Position numbers and translations under genes: made by a program
Assembly (NCBI GenBank): GCA_049974095.1
Contig: JBMFJD010000004.1
Location: 1-32,000 of the forward strand
Direction of reading: 5' to 3'
DNA length: 32,000 nucleotides
From: Nanopusillaceae archaeon
Lineage (GTDB): Archaea; Nanobdellota; Nanobdellia; Nanobdellales; Nanobdellaceae
Notes under the pieces: model-generated
What the model was told of the DNA's origin: nothing
The model's input: only the letters and a program-made list of their open reading frames with translations
Database searches by the model: none
In this document: in pieces, positions 6,264 to 16,011 of the stretch
Layout: every line of letters starts with the position of its first letter
Position numbering within the stretch: position 1 is the stretch's first letter

Positions 6264-6353
6264 TAATTTCTCTCATTTTTTAGTTGTTAAATTTTCTCAT
6301 TAAGCATTAAAACTTATAAAAATTTATAAAAATCTATAAATAAAATTTATATT

Positions 6354-7847
6354 ATGAAATCTATTTCTCCAATTATTTCTTCTATTTTAATTATAGTTAT
6401 TACTGTTGCAATTGCTGGATTATTTTATGCATGGACTACAGGTATGTTTAATTCATTAACTTCTTCTTCATCTTCTTATGTTCAAAGACAAGCAACATAT
6501 GTTTCATTTACTATTCCAAATATATATTGTTCTAATGGATTTCTATATTTTACTATTTATAATAATGGAAATATTCCTATTGTTCCAAGTAATATTATAC
6601 TAACTATTACTGAGAATTATAATACATATTTTATTAATGGATCTAATATTATTTGTAATAATAACATTATATCTTCAAATAGTCAAAATACTTGTTATGT
6701 AAATAATTCTTTATGTATTTATAATACTAATTTTGATATAAATCCATCTATTAGTATAACATATAACGGAGTAAATCAGAATCAGAATTTAGGATTAGGA
6801 TATATTATTATCCAATTTTCTTCTACTGTTCCTATAATTATAAATAATACTCAGAATATTTCTACTCCTGTACCTTTTCAACAAGATATTGCAATATGTA
6901 ATGGAAGTATAAGTTTTGGAAATAATTTTGCATATATAAATGATTCTACTTTATTTAATCAAATAAATCCAAATGGACAGAATGTATTGTTCTATAATAA
7001 TAATGGATTATTATATTCATGGTATGAAGGGCAAGATAATATTAATGGAACATTATGTGATGTATGGTGGATAAAATTACCTAATGGTATTTCTAATAAT
7101 ACAAATATAACAATTTATATGGGGATAGGAAATAATACAAATTATTATCAATTATTATATCCCTATGTAGGTATAAGTGCATATTGGTATTGTTATGAAG
7201 AAGGATATACTAATATGCCACAATGTCTAAACTATGGAGTATATGATAATGGACAGGATGTATTTAATTATTATTGGAATTTTGCAGGAACAAGTTTACC
7301 AAGTAGTCTATCTACTCTATTGAATGGAGGTACGGTTACAGTAAATAATGGAGTAACGCTTTCACCGGGAAATGCGGAAACAGATGTTTATTCTAATGTA
7401 GCTATTATAACCCCCACTGTAGTTGAAGCATATGTTGGATCAGTTTATAATTCGGATGCTGCTGTTTTCTTTTCAAAAAACGATATCAATTCTACACCAT
7501 CTTCTGGAGCAAATATATACAATGGATACATTGGAGGATATGCAGCAGGTCCCAAAACCGCTCAACTATGGAAAGATGTAAATGGAATATATTATCCTTT
7601 AGTTACAGGCTCAGGTTTTTCATCCCCCCAAATTATTAGTTTATATTGGGGAGGAAATGGAAATGAATATGTGACTTTCAATTATATTAACAACCTAAGT
7701 AGCACGGATAATACATTCTCAGTTGGTTCTTATTTAGTAGGTTTAACTACATATAACCACGGAACTTCTCCATACGCTACTTTTTATTGGCTTAGAACAT
7801 GTATGTACTCACCAAATGGAGTTATGCCTTCAATATATATAGGGTAA
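6354..7847 (+). CDS. type IV pilin-like (class III signal peptide) protein fused to a DUF2341-like and LamG/concanavalin-like C-terminal region; Asn-rich with many N-x-S/T sequons
   Basis: The N-terminus MKSISPIISSILIIVITVAIAGLFYAW matches the archaeal pilin/flagellin-N-terminal-like pattern (K-[GS]-ISP followed by a hydrophobic helix). CDVWWIKLPNGISNNTNITIYMGIGN resembles the DUF2341 core. The C-terminal FYWLRTCMYSPNGVMPSIYIG resembles the usual end of the associated LamG-like domain. The first ~90 aa are paralogous to the ORFs at 8238-8738 and 8796-9329. Confidence 0.7.
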   Translation: MKSISPIISSILIIVITVAIAGLFYAWTTGMFNSLTSSSSSYVQRQATYVSFTIPNIYCSNGFLYFTIYNNGNIPIVPSNIILTITENYNTYFINGSNIICNNNIISSNSQNTCYVNNSLCIYNTNFDINPSISITYNGVNQNQNLGLGYIIIQFSSTVPIIINNTQNISTPVPFQQDIAICNGSISFGNNFAYINDSTLFNQINPNGQNVLFYNNNGLLYSWYEGQDNINGTLCDVWWIKLPNGISNNTNITIYMGIGNNTNYYQLLYPYVGISAYWYCYEEGYTNMPQCLNYGVYDNGQDVFNYYWNFAGTSLPSSLSTLLNGGTVTVNNGVTLSPGNAETDVYSNVAIITPTVVEAYVGSVYNSDAAVFFSKNDINSTPSSGANIYNGYIGGYAAGPKTAQLWKDVNGIYYPLVTGSGFSSPQIISLYWGGNGNEYVTFNYINNLSSTDNTFSVGSYLVGLTTYNHGTSPYATFYWLRTCMYSPNGVMPSIYIG

Positions 7848-7918
7848 TATTCTCTAACGTTTGTTACCTAAAAGATATAAGGATAATATAATTTAGCATC
7901 TCTCTACTTTTCTATATT

Positions 7919-7964
7919 ATTATATTATGTCGTATAACCAAGATTATCCGACACAAACCAAAAT
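7919..7964. repeat. hairpin-containing ~46-nt repeat, copy 2 (inverted relative to copy 1; hairpin at 7928-7953)
   Basis: The sequence tgtcgtataaccaagattatccgaca has the reverse complement tgtcggataatcttggttatacgaca. Its stem is identical to copy 1 and its loop differs. It lies in the 390-bp gap between the convergent pilin-like genes. Confidence 0.6.
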
Positions 7965-8237
7965 ATTATATTACTTTTGTAATTATTCAAAATTTTTATT
8001 ATAATATACTCCAGATTAAGCCTTTCATTTTTTTATAAAAATTTTTACCACTATTAGATTATAAATCTTATAAATATCTAGAAAAATACAATGCTGTTAA
8101 GTTATAAAACAAATCCTTATTATCCATGAAATTAAATATATTAAACATGAATTAAAAAACTAAATCTAGGAATAAAAAACAGTAGAATATATAAAAAAGT
8201 ATTATAAAAAGAAGAATTATTAAAATTATATAAGAGA

Positions 8238-8738
8238 TTACGTTAAAGTTGCTTGGACAGATACCCCTCGATATGTAAATGTAAAGACATAATACGCTGT
8301 TCCTTCATTTAATTCTGTAATATTTATATTAGTACAGTTAAGTACCCATTGAGCTTGTGATCCATAAGTTATAGGATTTGTATTATAGGAAGTAACATTA
8401 CAGAACACAGTAGTTCCATCAAAAGTTTGATTTGCAGTATAATATTCCATACCTACTACAGACATTAAAGAAGGTACTATTGGAACATTTCCATTATTGT
8501 ATATAATTGCTGTTATATTACAACTAGTACTACTACTACAAGCACTGCTAGAACTATTAGTTGGATATACTTGTGGAACAGTAAATGAAACTATTTGGGT
8601 AGCTTGAGATGCTTGATTTGAACTAGCAGTTGTTAAAGAACTGAATAAACCCATTAACCATGCATACATTAATCCTGCAATTGCTACTGTCATTACTATC
8701 AATAATATTGTTGCAATAATAGGAGATATCCCTTTCAT
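8238..8738 (-). CDS. type IV pilin-like protein, tandem paralog A
   Basis: This 166-aa protein starts with MKGISPIIATILLIVMTVAIAGLMYAW, a class III signal-type N-terminus. It also carries YNNGNVPIV and the shared C-terminus YYVFTFTYRGVSVQATLT. Confidence 0.75.
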   Translation of the reverse strand: MKGISPIIATILLIVMTVAIAGLMYAWLMGLFSSLTTASSNQASQATQIVSFTVPQVYPTNSSSSACSSSTSCNITAIIYNNGNVPIVPSLMSVVGMEYYTANQTFDGTTVFCNVTSYNTNPITYGSQAQWVLNCTNINITELNEGTAYYVFTFTYRGVSVQATLT

Positions 8739-8778
8739 ACTTTATAGTATAGATTTATGTAATTTATAAGTTTTTATA
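8556..8778 (-). repeat. 223-nt near-identical duplicated block, copy A (codons 1-61 plus 40 nt upstream of paralog A)
   Basis: Manual alignment of 8556-8778 against 9147-9369 (constant offset 591) shows 2 mismatches, at 8564/9155 and 8642/9233. Confidence 0.85.
8762..8769 (-). promoter_or_regulatory. putative TATA box (TTATAAAT on the minus strand) of pilin paralog A
   Basis: The box is centred about 27 nt upstream of the ATG at 8738, which fits a leaderless or short-leader archaeal transcript. It lies within the duplicated block. No experimental support is available. Confidence 0.4.
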
Positions 8779-8795
8779 AAAATTATTTTTAAAAA

Positions 8796-9329
8796 TTATG
8801 TTAGAGTCGCTTGGACAGATACCCCATGATATGTAAATGTAAAGACATAATAATTATTTTTTGAAATAACAGAATTATAATATATGCTACTATCATTATA
8901 ATTATTAGTTGAAGAAGTACAATCTAATACCCAAGTTCCTTGTGAGCCCGAAAGTATTGTATATGTCGATGAAATCGGTATATTTAAACTAGATGTATTA
9001 GCTACGACACAATTATATGTTACTCCATCAAAAGTTTGATTTGCAGTATAATATTCCTGTGCTATTATTGTTAAAGAAGAAGAATTTACTATTGGAACAT
9101 TTCCATTGTTATAAACTGTAGCAACTATATAAGGAGTGCCACTTACATTAGTTGAATATACTTGTGGAACAGTAAATGAAACTATTTGGGTAGCTTGAGA
9201 TGCTTGATTTGAACTAGCAGTTGTTAAAGAACCGAATAAACCCATTAACCATGCATACATTAATCCTGCAATTGCTACTGTCATTACTATCAATAATATT
9301 GTTGCAATAATAGGAGATATCCCTTTCAT
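8796..9329 (-). CDS. type IV pilin-like protein, tandem paralog B
   Basis: This 177-aa protein matches paralog A over its first 61 aa except at 2 positions (S33G, P59S). It shares the C-terminus YYVFTFTYHGVSVQATLT. The central ~80 aa are divergent and include an 11-aa length difference. Confidence 0.75.
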   Translation of the reverse strand: MKGISPIIATILLIVMTVAIAGLMYAWLMGLFGSLTTASSNQASQATQIVSFTVPQVYSTNVSGTPYIVATVYNNGNVPIVNSSSLTIIAQEYYTANQTFDGVTYNCVVANTSSLNIPISSTYTILSGSQGTWVLDCTSSTNNYNDSSIYYNSVISKNNYYVFTFTYHGVSVQATLT

Positions 9330-9369
9330 ACTTTATAGTATAGATTTATGTAATTTATAAGTTTTTATA
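9147..9369 (-). repeat. 223-nt near-identical duplicated block, copy B (codons 1-61 plus 40 nt upstream of paralog B)
   Basis: This is the partner of 8556-8778. Identity stops abruptly at 8779/9370 (aaaatt versus tagatt). Confidence 0.85.
9353..9360 (-). promoter_or_regulatory. putative TATA box (TTATAAAT on the minus strand) of pilin paralog B
   Basis: The sequence and its spacing to the ATG at 9329 are identical to those of paralog A. Confidence 0.4.
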
Positions 9370-9464: not shown

Positions 9465-9539
9465 GGACCCGTAGCTCAGCATGGATAGAGCGGTGGCCTC
9501 CTAAGCCACAGGTCGGGGGTTCGAATCCCCCTGGGTCCG
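9465..9539 (+). tRNA. tRNA-Arg (anticodon CCU)
   Basis: A manual cloverleaf fold gives acceptor GGACCCG/UGGGUCC and D arm GCUC-AGCAUGGAU-AGAGC. The anticodon arm is GUGGC-CUCCUAA-GCCAC and the T arm is GGGGG-UUCGAAU-CCCCC. The discriminator is G and no CCA is encoded. The gene is much more GC-rich than its surroundings. Confidence 0.9.
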
Positions 9540-9844
9540 CTTAAAAAACAGAAAACAAATAAATTACAGATATTACAAATATCATTAGCGATAGAATTAT
9601 CTTATACAAAATATTATAATTTTTTATTTCAAATAACAAAATTATTAAAAATATTACTGTAAAAATATTAAGTTATCCTTTACTATTTTCTATATATGAA
9701 AATACTAAATTATATTTTTTAATAGTTTCTAAAGGTTCTTCGTATATAAAATCCTTTTCCTTTTCATATAGTATTTAAAAGATTAGAACTATAAATAAAA
9801 AGATAAAAGATATTATAACTTTGAAATTTCATTTAAATAATATC

Positions 9845-9991
9845 CTAAGAATATGCCAAAAATAGATATAAAGCCAATAATATTCCAAGATTTATATTGA
9901 GATAATTATTTATGTATTTTCTAATATTATTTAAAGCCACAGATTCAATTATATTAAATAAGAAATCTATTAAAAATAATATTAAATCCAT
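9845..9991 (-). CDS. possible small membrane protein (48 aa)
   Basis: This ORF is absent from the track. It reads MDLILFLIDFLFNIIESVALNNIRKYINNYLNINLGILLALYLFLAYS. Its ATG (9989-9991) overlaps the last codons of the upstream gene (ATGGATTTAA). Support comes only from ORF length in a stop-rich AT genome and from the coupled start; I see no homology. Confidence 0.2.
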   Translation of the reverse strand: MDLILFLIDFLFNIIESVALNNIRKYINNYLNINLGILLALYLFLAYS

Positions 9992-10446
9992 CTATTCTTT
10001 TTCAATTCTAACAAAAATTTTAATGATTTAACAGCATCTTCTGGAGAATCAAAAACAGGTGCGTAATTTTCTAAAGAAATTTTTATTTGCTCTGTAAATC
10101 CTCCACCATATATTACAAAAACAATTGGTATTTTTTTATTTATTACCTTACTTACTTTTTCTGGAAATTTTTCTGTAAAAAATGCTAATTGAGGTAGAAC
10201 TATTGAAATTATTCCTTCAGTCCTGTTATCATTAATTAATATTTTTAATCCCTCAATATATTGATCTTCACTTGCTTGAGCAGTAGTATCTATTGGATTA
10301 TGAAATGAAGAAAAAGATGGTAAAATTTGTTTTAATTTTTCCTTAATATCTTCAGGAGTTTCCTCTAGAATAATATTATTTATTTCTAAAGCATCTGTAG
10401 CCAAAACACCCTCTCCACCACCATTAGTATAAATATATACTACCAT
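9982..10446 (-). CDS. acetyl-CoA synthetase (ADP-forming) alpha subunit, C-terminal segment
   Basis: MVVYIYTNGGGEGVLATDALE... corresponds to the xVAIITNAGGPGVLAAD region and the C-terminal flavodoxin-like subdomain of ACD alpha. It is in the same reading frame as 10477-11352, separated by one TAA and 10 sense codons. Confidence 0.75.
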   Translation of the reverse strand: MVVYIYTNGGGEGVLATDALEINNIILEETPEDIKEKLKQILPSFSSFHNPIDTTAQASEDQYIEGLKILINDNRTEGIISIVLPQLAFFTEKFPEKVSKVINKKIPIVFVIYGGGFTEQIKISLENYAPVFDSPEDAVKSLKFLLELKKNRWI

Positions 10447-10476
10447 ATTTTCTTTATATTCAATAGGATTTAAAAA

Positions 10477-11352
10477 TTACAAATAATAAGATATTGTTTT
10501 GAGATATATCATAAAATCATTCATATTTTTTGCTTCTATTATTCCATATTGTTTAAATAAATTTCTATATACTTCATAATCTCCAGCTAATGATGCTGTA
10601 TGAGAAGAAACTGCAATAGATCCTCTTTTTGTTTTTCCAGATTTTAATACAATAACTGGCCTATTTAGTTCTTTTACTATTTCTAAAAACTCCTTTCCTC
10701 TCCCTTCTTTCAATCCTTCCATATATATAAATATTGCCTTCGTATTTTCATCATTTTTTAACTCTTTTAATATGTCTATTTCATCTAAATCTATTTTATT
10801 ACCATATGAGATTATCTTTGAAACACCTATATATTTACTTGATAACCATTCCATTACTGCTAATGATATTGCTCCAGATTGCGATAATATAGCAATTTTT
10901 CCTTTTTTTGGTCTTTTAATCCTTCTTTCATCAACAAAAAATGTATCTATACCTGTATATGGATCGTATAATCCCATTCCATTTGGTCCTAAAATTCTTA
11001 TTCCATATTTTTTAGAATATTCTAATATTTTCTCTTCTAAATCTTTTCTTCCAACTTCAGAAAATCCAGCAGATATTACTATTGCCAACTTTATTCCTTT
11101 TTTCCCTGATTGCTCTATAACTTCAGGAACTTTCTCTGCAGGAATTGCTACTATAACACAATCTATATCTTCTTGTATATCTAAAATTGATTTATAGCAT
11201 TTTAATCCATATAAATTATCATAATTTGGATTAATAGGAAATACCTTTCCTTTAAATCTTTTCATTATATTTTTTAATATTATATTTCCTGCTTTTCCTT
11301 CTTTATTACTTGCTCCAACAATTGCAACAGATTTTATATCAAATAGGCTCAT
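10477..11352 (-). CDS. acetyl-CoA synthetase (ADP-forming) alpha subunit, N-terminal segment (CoA-binding and ligase-CoA domains)
   Basis: Diagnostic segments are IKSVAIVGASNKEGKAGNIILKNI (CoA-binding Rossmann), RILGPNGMG, ILSQSGA, and the phosphohistidine loop SSHTASLAG. The ORF ends at a TAA at 10477-10479. Confidence 0.8.
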   Translation of the reverse strand: MSLFDIKSVAIVGASNKEGKAGNIILKNIMKRFKGKVFPINPNYDNLYGLKCYKSILDIQEDIDCVIVAIPAEKVPEVIEQSGKKGIKLAIVISAGFSEVGRKDLEEKILEYSKKYGIRILGPNGMGLYDPYTGIDTFFVDERRIKRPKKGKIAILSQSGAISLAVMEWLSSKYIGVSKIISYGNKIDLDEIDILKELKNDENTKAIFIYMEGLKEGRGKEFLEIVKELNRPVIVLKSGKTKRGSIAVSSHTASLAGDYEVYRNLFKQYGIIEAKNMNDFMIYLKTISYYL

Positions 11353-15222: not shown

Positions 15223-16011
15223 TTATAATAAGAAAAAGAAGCCTATTGATATCACAGTTAAAATTATACTATGAATTATTCCAGATTTTATTGCTCCTTT
15301 TGACAATTTTCCAATGACCAAACCTGTGAATAGAGCATTTATTAATAATAAAATAAATGATAACCATTTATATAAACTAATTACTGAATAATAAAACTCC
15401 TCGTTTCCAATAAAGTTTATTCCTTTTATATTTAAAACCAAGAAATATATTGCAACAATTGATAATAATATTCCAAAATATAATCCGTAATATGTATATG
15501 TAACAACCTTTAGCTGAGATAATCTATCCTTTTTAATATTATTTAAATTTTGTATACTCTCAGATAATGTATCTAGTAGATTACTTAAATCTCCCCCATT
15601 TCTTAAAACATTCTCTATATTTAATAATACTTCTGATATTTCTCTATTTTTTATTCTTTCTGAACTATTCTCCAATACTTCATGAAATGTTCTTCCATAT
15701 TTCATTTGAGAAATCATATATCTTACTTCTTTATCCAACTTTTTTCCATAATTATTATTTAACAAATTTTGCAAAGCAATTGGTAATGGCTGTCCAATTT
15801 TTAGATAATGAGAAAGATCTCTTAAAAATAATGGAAAATTATTTATCATCTCTTCTTCTTCCAAATATTCTTTCAAATATTTTATTGAGTAAATTAAAAA
15901 TAATAATACAATAATACCAATTTTTACAAACATATTTAATTTAATTGGCAAAATTAAAAATAATAAGGAAAAAATAGAAATTAATAAAATATAAATTATA
16001 TCTTTATTCAT
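15223..16011 (-). CDS. type IV pilus/archaellum assembly platform protein, single T2SSF domain (FlaJ/TadC-like)
   Basis: An N-terminal TM helix is followed by a cytoplasmic T2SSF-like domain (FPLFLRDLSHYLKIGQPLPIALQNLL...GRTFHEVLENSS...VLRNGGDLSNLLDTLSESI) and then three TM helices. The start overlaps the ppsA stop by 8 nt. Confidence 0.6.
   Translation of the reverse strand: MNKDIIYILLISIFSLLFLILPIKLNMFVKIGIIVLLFLIYSIKYLKEYLEEEEMINNFPLFLRDLSHYLKIGQPLPIALQNLLNNNYGKKLDKEVRYMISQMKYGRTFHEVLENSSERIKNREISEVLLNIENVLRNGGDLSNLLDTLSESIQNLNNIKKDRLSQLKVVTYTYYGLYFGILLSIVAIYFLVLNIKGINFIGNEEFYYSVISLYKWLSFILLLINALFTGLVIGKLSKGAIKSGIIHSIILTVISIGFFFLL

Follow-up and report, generated by a model that had tools for sequence, protein, structure and literature searches.

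We have analyzed two adjacent genes, here called A and B, in a 32,000-nucleotide (nt) stretch of DNA (the window: positions 1 to 32,000 of contig JBMFJD010000004.1, assembly GCA_049974095.1) from a deposited Nanopusillaceae metagenome-assembled genome (MAG). Both genes encode archaeal type IV pilins. Their first 61 codons and the 40 nt upstream of each start codon are nearly identical, while most of the remaining coding sequence is deeply diverged. This mosaic probably records a lineage-specific tandem duplication of a major type IV pilin gene, followed by a long period of divergence and then by a recent gene conversion of the 5' part. Gene A (8238-8738, minus strand; NCBI MGC9133081) is a complete open reading frame (ORF) of 166 amino acids (aa), and gene B (8796-9329, minus strand; MGC9133082) is a complete ORF of 177 aa. 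They lie head-to-tail and differ in length by 33 nt. Together with a third gene, C, they are annotated consecutively (C, A, B) as MGC9133080-82 on a 67-kb contig; B matches its protein in this MAG at 100% identity. The GC content of the window is 24.9%. A first-pass annotation, made from the letters of the window without database searches, had drawn attention to the pair and had supposed an obligately host-attached, genome-reduced archaeon as the source, and a genome-reduced nanoarchaeon of the Nanopusillaceae agrees with this.

The homogenised block occupies positions 8556-8778 at gene A and 9147-9369 at gene B (minus strand in both cases, with a register of 591). Over these 223 nt there are exactly 2 mismatches, and BLASTN reports 99.1% identity. 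The block consists of a 40-nt core promoter upstream of each ATG, in which all 40 positions are the same and which includes a TATA-like box, followed by codons 1-61 (183 nt), which encode the signal peptide, the alpha-1 helix and the first beta-strand. Both mismatches are non-synonymous: A has S33 and P59 where B has G33 and S59. Two non-synonymous changes out of two are not significant alone (P estimated at ~0.4). In its length, its two substitutions and its identical untranslated part, the block is as the first-pass annotation had described it from a manual alignment. The longest identical run between A and B measures 136 nt, a length reached in none of 100,000 permutations. A BLASTN search of the window for other copies of the block returned none except a 74.6% match at the 5' end of gene C.

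Beyond codon 61 the similarity ends abruptly. In a 30-nt sliding window, identity between A and B falls from 0.97-1.0 to 0.33 in two 15-nt steps, that is, within ~30 nt. The divergent centre that follows has 93 mismatches in 240 alignable nt and several indels that amount to a net 33 nt. Its divergence and the length difference had been seen correctly at the outset, but it had been called the central third of the gene; it spans approximately codons 62-148, about half of the gene. Similarity returns at the 3' end, where the last 54 aligned nt contain 5 mismatches, in agreement with the earlier count of about five. This 3' block (8238-8294 in A, with its partner at 8796-8852 in B; minus strand) encodes the motif YYVFTFTYxGVSVQATLT, which is conserved family-wide, and the stop codon.

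Synonymous (dS) and non-synonymous (dN) divergence between A and B was estimated for each segment by the method of Nei and Gojobori (NG86). Codons 1-61 have a dS of 0 (0 of 43.3 synonymous sites) and a dN of 0.014, with dN/dS undefined. In the centre dS is 0.86 and dN/dS 0.55, and for the last 18 codons the values are 0.31 and 0.12. The computational alignment, sliding-window identity and dS/dN analysis that had been proposed as a check thus gave a mosaic, with dS of 0, 0.86 and 0.31 along the genes. The difference in mismatch density between the 5' block and the centre is highly significant (Fisher P = 1.4e-24) and remains so when only synonymous sites are counted (0/43 in the block vs 28/55 in the centre; Fisher P = 1.7e-9). 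The similarity of the last 18 codons may stem from an older conversion tract or simply from strong constraint.

Two short islands of similarity interrupt the divergent centre. The first encodes EYYTANQTFDG (8415-8447 in A, partner 9024-9056 in B; minus strand) and is identical over ~33 nt. The orthologues are 55-82% identical to A at this island, which may represent a second short conversion tract, constraint combined with codon bias, or chance. The first-pass annotation had reported this island, rightly, but as the only one. A second island, encoding NGNVPI (~21 nt), is conserved family-wide and carries 2 synonymous differences between A and B.

Comparison with orthologues indicates that selection and codon bias do not account for the 5' block. 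Residues 1-28 are nearly invariant across the whole pilin family, and the orthologues in eight other genomes are 93-100% identical to A in amino acid sequence over this segment. At the nucleotide level, however, these orthologues share only 86-92% identity with A, and 61-79% at third positions, whereas A and B are 100% identical over codons 1-28. Likewise, the 40 nt upstream of A and B match at 40/40 positions, and those of the orthologues at 42-62%, with only the TATA element in common. Selection and codon bias are ruled out because the third positions and upstream DNA of the orthologues have diverged despite the same amino acids. At identical degenerate residues A and B use the same codon in 54/54 cases within the block and in 44/54 beyond it; for gene C of the same genome compared with A/B the count is 21/33. 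The synonymous differences in the NGNVPI island illustrate what selection alone looks like at this locus. Residues 29-61, which belong to the block, are variable across the family, and yet A and B are 94% identical here, the next best match being 64%.

It follows that the common ancestor of the 5' block is much younger than that of the rest of A and B, and recombination is required to explain this. Judging from the sequences, gene conversion between the tandem copies is the most likely form of it. As is looked for in a conversion tract, dS inside the block is far below that outside, the borders are sharp, and the identity extends through 40 of 40 upstream nt of otherwise unconserved non-coding DNA. 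The original proposal of recombination rather than purifying selection therefore stands (dS of 0 vs 0.86). Its other form, a recent duplication of the whole gene, is set aside because the synonymous sites of the centre are nearly saturated.

About 75 homologues with 43-58% identity were found, in Nanobdella, Nanopusillus, Nanobsidianus, strain YN1 and hot-spring metagenomes; a second homologue search with A gave no closer relatives. A scan of the genome collection together with an ORF scan showed exactly one small pilin at the syntenic site in 10 of 10 related genomes. This comparison of orthologous loci, another check proposed at the start, marks the duplication of A and B as lineage-specific. 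Beyond codon 61 the two proteins are 55% identical and are weak sisters (neighbour-joining bootstrap 58%), with a Kimura distance of 0.67 between A and B and of 0.68 between A and Nanobdella. The segments of the pair thus disagree in distance, 94% identity over residues 29-61 standing against 55% beyond, and there is no second copy in the 10 relatives.

The identification of A and B as type IV pilins with a class III signal, first suggested by the sequence alone, is corroborated by domain models, a predicted fold and profile matches to pilus subunits. Both prepilins start with MKG followed by ISPIIATILLIVMTVAIAGL, a class III signal; A begins with MKG and then ISPIIATILL. TIGR02537, the archaellin/type IV pilin N-terminal domain, scores 36.3 bits in A and 36.1 in B (cutoff 20). 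The scores for Pfam PF07790 (Pilin_N), 18.8 and 21.0 bits, are under the 25.2 cutoff, but several orthologues carry a precomputed PF07790 hit, so this shortfall reflects the sensitivity of the model and is no argument against homology. The best named model is NF046073 UpsA (E = 5e-22; 78.4 bits for A and 72.3 for B). Equivalence to UpsA was rejected, since the scores are below the 130-bit equivalog cutoff and ups genes are not adjacent; the proteins are homologous only.

The AlphaFold2 model of B, with a predicted local distance difference test (pLDDT) score of 79.5, has a helix at residues 6-46 followed by a seven-strand beta-sandwich. Confidence is low at residues 111-120 and 142-146, which are the sites of indels between A and B. 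The best Foldseek matches of this model in the PDB are the soluble beta-sandwich domains of FlaG and FlaF (E = 2e-4 to 9e-4). Matches to potassium channels (Kir/KirBac) were set aside, as they have 11-15% identity and reflect a generic combination of a transmembrane helix and an Ig-like beta-sandwich. A family profile searched against the PDB matched the pilus subunits 8fk7 (E = 1e-8, positions 2-120), Iho670 (5kyh) and 8rey. The mature N-terminus of Iho670, from the Ignicoccus adhesion filament (5kyh, 3j1r), aligns at I4, which places the peptidase cut between MKG and ISP. In structural terms, the 5' block supplies the signal peptide, the helix of the filament core and the first strand, and the divergent part corresponds to the exposed globular domain.

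These exposed domains differ between A and B at ~45% of alignable positions and in loop length. There are 6 N-glycosylation sequons in A and 5 in B, of which only two correspond in position. Two family-conserved cysteines are kept in both proteins, and A has an extra pair within a Ser-rich inserted loop. This insertion, SSSSACSSSTSC, is a Ser/Cys-rich low-complexity segment specific to A (8513-8555, minus strand; residues 62-75), and its DNA is rich in AGT/AGC. SSSSACSSSTSC could form an O- or N-glycosylated surface loop closed by a disulfide. The independent contig L016 (see below) stops precisely at the border of this segment, which is also a possible hotspot for assembly breaks. It had been suggested that the exposed part of the pair is being diversified, and this was not borne out: dN/dS in the centre is 0.55 and dS is near saturation. 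The same pattern of conserved ends and a variable middle is found in single-copy orthologues, so it belongs to pilin architecture and is no special property of this pair.

The promoters of the two genes can be read directly from the sequence. The TATA-like box of gene A, TTATAAAT, lies at 8762-8769 (minus strand), -31 to -24 from the ATG, and is preceded by an A-rich stretch resembling a transcription factor B recognition element (BRE). Gene B has an identical box at 9353-9360 (minus strand). In each of the 9 orthologous loci extracted, a TTTATAAATA element precedes the pilin gene by the same distance. From the position of the TATA box, the mRNA would have no leader or almost none. Between the stop codon of B and A's copy of the repeat there is a junction of only 17 nt (8779-8795, minus strand), a unique sequence that begins with a T5 run, likely an archaeal terminator. 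With its own TATA box and with the T5 run after the B stop, each copy looks like an independent transcription unit served by the same core promoter.

From these data we infer the following history, in which A and B are both functional paralogues of a major type IV pilin. A unit of ~590 nt, comprising promoter, gene and short spacer, would have been duplicated in tandem, and the copies would have diverged until their exposed beta-sandwich domains differed as much as those of different genera. Recently, the core promoter and first 61 codons of one copy would have been overwritten by those of the other, in a tract that starts where homology stops, at the upstream limit of the duplicated unit, and extends to around codon 61; near-identity would thereby have been reset. 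As to function, the identical BRE/TATA promoters of A and B would give rise to leaderless mRNAs that terminate separately, and both prepilins would be cut after Gly3, between MKG and ISP, by the class III signal peptidase. With the same hydrophobic alpha-1 helix, the two mature proteins would be offered to a single assembly machine and a single filament core. The cell could then build adhesive filaments with two different surfaces, either mixed or separate.

Several points weigh against this history. None of the 10 related genomes carries both paralogues. The tandem is known from a single MAG, and when metagenome contigs were scanned for exact patterns, once with a 30-nt lineage-specific piece of the 5' block and once with the 3' end of B, no second instance turned up. 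The popping of bubbles in a De Bruijn graph could slightly exaggerate the identity of the two block copies. Finally, intragenomic conversion of the 5' part is indistinguishable from foreign replacement of the centre of one copy.

This last point leads to an alternative that we regard as unlikely, namely that the 5' block was never overwritten and that the centre and 3' part of one copy were imported from a divergent Nanopusillaceae strain, or acquired when the tandem was formed, by crossovers in the conserved 5' block and 3' motif. Such events have apparent parallels in metagenomic pilin alleles that resemble exact module recombinants (P0020 and P0040, see below) and in the neighbouring gene C, where a cassette has been replaced at the strain level with sharp borders. 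The sisterhood of A and B has, moreover, a bootstrap of only 58%, and A is as distant from B as from Nanobdella. Against an import, A and B still group together in the tree of the centre and 3' part, and they have lineage-specific residues in common as well as the 33 identical nt at EYYTANQTFDG. No sampled lineage comes closer than ~55% to either centre, and the metagenomic mosaics could themselves be assembly chimeras.

It is improbable that the tandem is an assembly artefact, in which A and B would be alleles of one locus from two co-occurring strains joined serially, or products of consensus collapse. Among 11 genomes the tandem occurs in this MAG only, and neither exact-pattern scan found an independent contig with the junction. 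Look-ups of contigs containing exact A or B proteins gave no match. The sole independent contig, L016 from Joint Genome Institute (JGI) sample 3300041912, was reached through a cluster of 75-aa fragments. It matches window positions 8513-7927 at 99.8% and covers the 3' two-thirds of gene A, but it begins inside that gene, 43 nt from the repeat; the junction is therefore not spanned, and the assembly graph evidently broke there in another sample. The sequence of the junction itself argues the other way. The B stop is followed by 17 nt unlike the 3' flank of A and by a second full copy of the promoter, k-mers that an assembler does not invent, and a promoter downstream of B indicates that a second gene lies there. 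Past the end of A the intergenic DNA hardly varies between samples (99.8-100% identity), and the flank of B differs from it. Collapse cannot make sequences of ~60% identity 99% identical, and the two mismatches kept inside the block indicate that the copies were resolved.

An origin without any recombination, through purifying selection and extreme AT codon bias or through a very recent duplication with positive selection or hypermutation of the centre, is very improbable: residues 1-28 are indeed nearly invariant family-wide and a 25% GC genome leaves few synonymous choices, but orthologues with identical residues differ at 21-39% of third positions, the paralogue C of the same genome has the same codon at only 64% of identical residues, the non-coding 40 nt are identical where orthologues conserve the TATA element alone, the selection-conserved NGNVPI island does carry synonymous differences, and a dS of 0.86 in the centre is impossible from selection on the protein. 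Two specific mechanisms were also rejected. A diversity-generating retroelement or other hypermutation does not fit, as there is no reverse transcriptase in the window and the differences in the centre consist of indels and of synonymous change that is saturated; silent cassettes of the pilE/pilS type do not fit either, as A and B are both complete, with start, stop and an identical promoter.

Gene C (6354-7847, plus strand; 497 aa, MGC9133080) is convergent with gene A. It has a pilin-like N-terminus with a class III signal that matches UpsA and TIGR02537, a beta-sandwich, a DUF2341-like region and a variable C-terminal region. In the region aligned with gene C, the homologue P0084 scores above the DUF2341 cutoff. 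The structural model matches concanavalin-like lectin and GH16 folds, with low confidence in the C-terminal half. The family is large (358 hits), each nanoarchaeal genome having several paralogues, and some of its members also score above the DUF2341 cutoff. In many hits the alignment is confined to 55-68% of the query, which fits a remainder that is variable. By analogy with proteins discussed elsewhere (PMC4858521), gene C is a candidate minor pilin or pilus-tip adhesin. The NCBI label 'RNA-binding protein' on one Nanobdella homologue looks like a misannotation. At its 5' end gene C resembles A/B on the opposite strand: over the promoter and the first ~27 codons (6315-6434 vs 8658-8778) the identity is 74.6%, and a TATA-like element is similarly placed, which suggests that A, B and C may be co-regulated.

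The contig L016 also differs from the window within gene C. Its positions 588-1375 replace window positions 7169-7926 with an unrelated sequence of similar length and ~40% nt identity, between flanks that are 99.8-100% identical over 7927-8513 and 96% identical over 7064-7168. The exchanged segment comprises the 3' 40% of gene C and 79 nt downstream, that is, it encodes the last ~225 residues, of which only the C-terminal PNGVMPSI motif is conserved. It looks like a strain-level swap of a domain cassette in the putative adhesin.

Apparently chimeric pilin alleles were seen in metagenomes. P0020 combines the N-part of P0010 (79/79) with the C-part of P0016 (80/81), and P0040 has the N-part of P0011 (81/81) and a different C-part. 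In the chimeric alleles among P0010, P0016, P0020, P0011, P0040 and P0037 the breaks are near the EYYxxNxTYDG island, and trees of the N-part and C-part of metagenomic pilins are widely discordant. These alleles may be inter-strain recombinants or assembly chimeras.

The metagenomic chimeras and the swap in gene C keep alive a broader reading, which we put forward tentatively and rate as less probable than not, that the pilin locus of the Nanopusillaceae is a site of recombination-driven diversification for host-contact structures in which conserved modules act as crossover anchors. For the major pilin the anchors may be the promoter with the alpha-1 helix, the EYY island and the C-terminal strand. 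For the DUF2341 protein they may be the N-terminal region up to YPYVG and the C-terminal PNGVMPSI motif. Cassettes may be exchanged between paralogues as well as between strains, in which case the A/B pair and the gene C swap may be captured intermediates. If true, such a site would let these obligate ectosymbionts change their host specificity or evade recognition by hosts or viruses. As a surface-structure diversification hotspot with a part in host contact, the locus is plausible but unproven.

The surroundings of the pair show that the pilin site is, as far as gene order tells, a conserved one with small rearrangements around it. The neighbours are a tRNA-Arg, acyl-CoA ligase subunits, a DUF2250 regulator and gene C. 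The tRNA-Arg(CCT), at 9465-9540 (plus strand), is directly upstream of B and serves as a syntenic landmark. Integration at this tRNA was considered and rejected, as a tRNA is also found upstream of the single-copy pilin at the Nanopusillus locus (L008); Rfam identified only three tRNAs. The acyl-CoA ligase genes that flank the pair here (9982-11352, minus strand) are also found near the pilin in relatives: in YN1 the pilin directly follows the two subunit genes, in Nanobdella a TauE-family gene intervenes, and in Nanobsidianus the small-subunit gene is ~5.7 kb upstream of the pilin. At 9982-11352 the alpha-type subunit of acyl-CoA synthetase (ADP-forming) is split into ORFs of 291 and 154 aa. 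A gene on the opposite strand separates the acyl-CoA synthetase ORFs of Nanobdella and YN1 (L001, L002), and the TauE gene of Nanobdella is absent here.

Further away, at 15223-16011 (minus strand), the window encodes a 262-aa T2SSF/FlaJ/TadC-like platform protein (PF00482, E = 1.9e-13), a possible assembly partner for the pilins at a distance of 6 kb. The platform gene adjoins a phosphoenolpyruvate synthase gene, and no secretion ATPase gene lies beside it within the window; neither a pilus ATPase nor a peptidase was found among the genes of the window. A high density of non-synonymous single-nucleotide polymorphisms has been reported in one FlaJ/TadC homologue of Nanoarchaeota (Jarett et al., PMC6142677). 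The same study describes two type IV pilus systems and an archaellum in Nanoarchaeota, and elevated non-synonymous variation in type IV pilus components (Jarett et al., PMC6142677). In the light of these published data, a role of the pilins in host contact is plausible.

For the question of how nanoarchaeal ectosymbionts recognize and attach to their hosts, this locus supplies concrete candidates. One is a family-conserved, syntenic major pilin that has been doubled in one lineage with an identical assembly module and a different exposed domain; another is the adjacent lectin-like, pilin-anchored gene C, whose C-terminal region has changed between near-identical strains. The segments so defined, variable and constant, could be put to use in strain typing, in antibody or cryo-electron microscopy work, and in host-range tests with the cultivated relatives Nanobdella and Nanopusillus. 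In a limited search of the literature, we did not come across any nanoarchaeal pilin for which a conversion tract had been measured.

The pair resembles, in part, several known systems. Like pilE/pilS of Neisseria, it involves a type IV pilin with a constant N-terminal part, a variable exposed part and non-reciprocal recombination between copies. The pilS donors, however, are partial cassettes that are silent and lack a promoter, and it is the variable part that they convert; A and B are both complete genes with promoters of their own, and the segment converted here is the constant module. UpsA and UpsB of the Sulfolobales are likewise encoded by two adjacent pilin genes, and NCBI labels a Nanobsidianus orthologue 'UpsA'. 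These two are old, distinct paralogues, not a partly homogenised pair, and their operon contains upsX, upsE (ATPase), upsF (platform) and upsB; no upsX, upsE or upsF is adjacent to A and B.

The adhesion pilins PilA1-PilA6 of Haloferax volcanii, reportedly described by Esquivel et al. in 2013, are similar in that several major-pilin paralogues with a common N-terminus and different exposed domains use the same machinery. They differ from the present case, in which there are two copies only and identity extends over 61 codons and the promoter. We know of no haloarchaeal pilins described as a tandem pair that has the same promoter twice and lacks synonymous divergence, nor of a gene-conversion signature reported for the haloarchaeal genes. 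Among PilA1-PilA6 the H-domain is almost fully conserved, and each can act as the major pilin with different effects on adhesion (PMC4371748).

Archaeal major pilins in general are prone to tandem duplication, and DUF2341 proteins with class III signals have been proposed as tip adhesins (Makarova, Koonin & Albers 2016, PMC4858521). The latter proposal matches gene C beside the pair. That survey found no cognate pilins for some nanoarchaeal systems and did not analyze conversion tracts, whereas here a nanoarchaeal mosaic has been measured. In the tandem lpl surface-protein paralogues of Staphylococcus aureus, recombination at conserved segments shuffles the variable ones (Tsuru & Kobayashi 2008, PMC2568036). 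The conserved site of lpl is central and its ends vary, whereas in A and B the ends are conserved and the centre varies; more than 10 genomes were compared there, and a single genome is available here. The A/B pair is thus a well-resolved new example within a known class, that of tandem major-pilin duplicates with a common N-terminus, rather than a new principle, and its partial conversion tract, from an archaeon with a very small genome, is of textbook quality.

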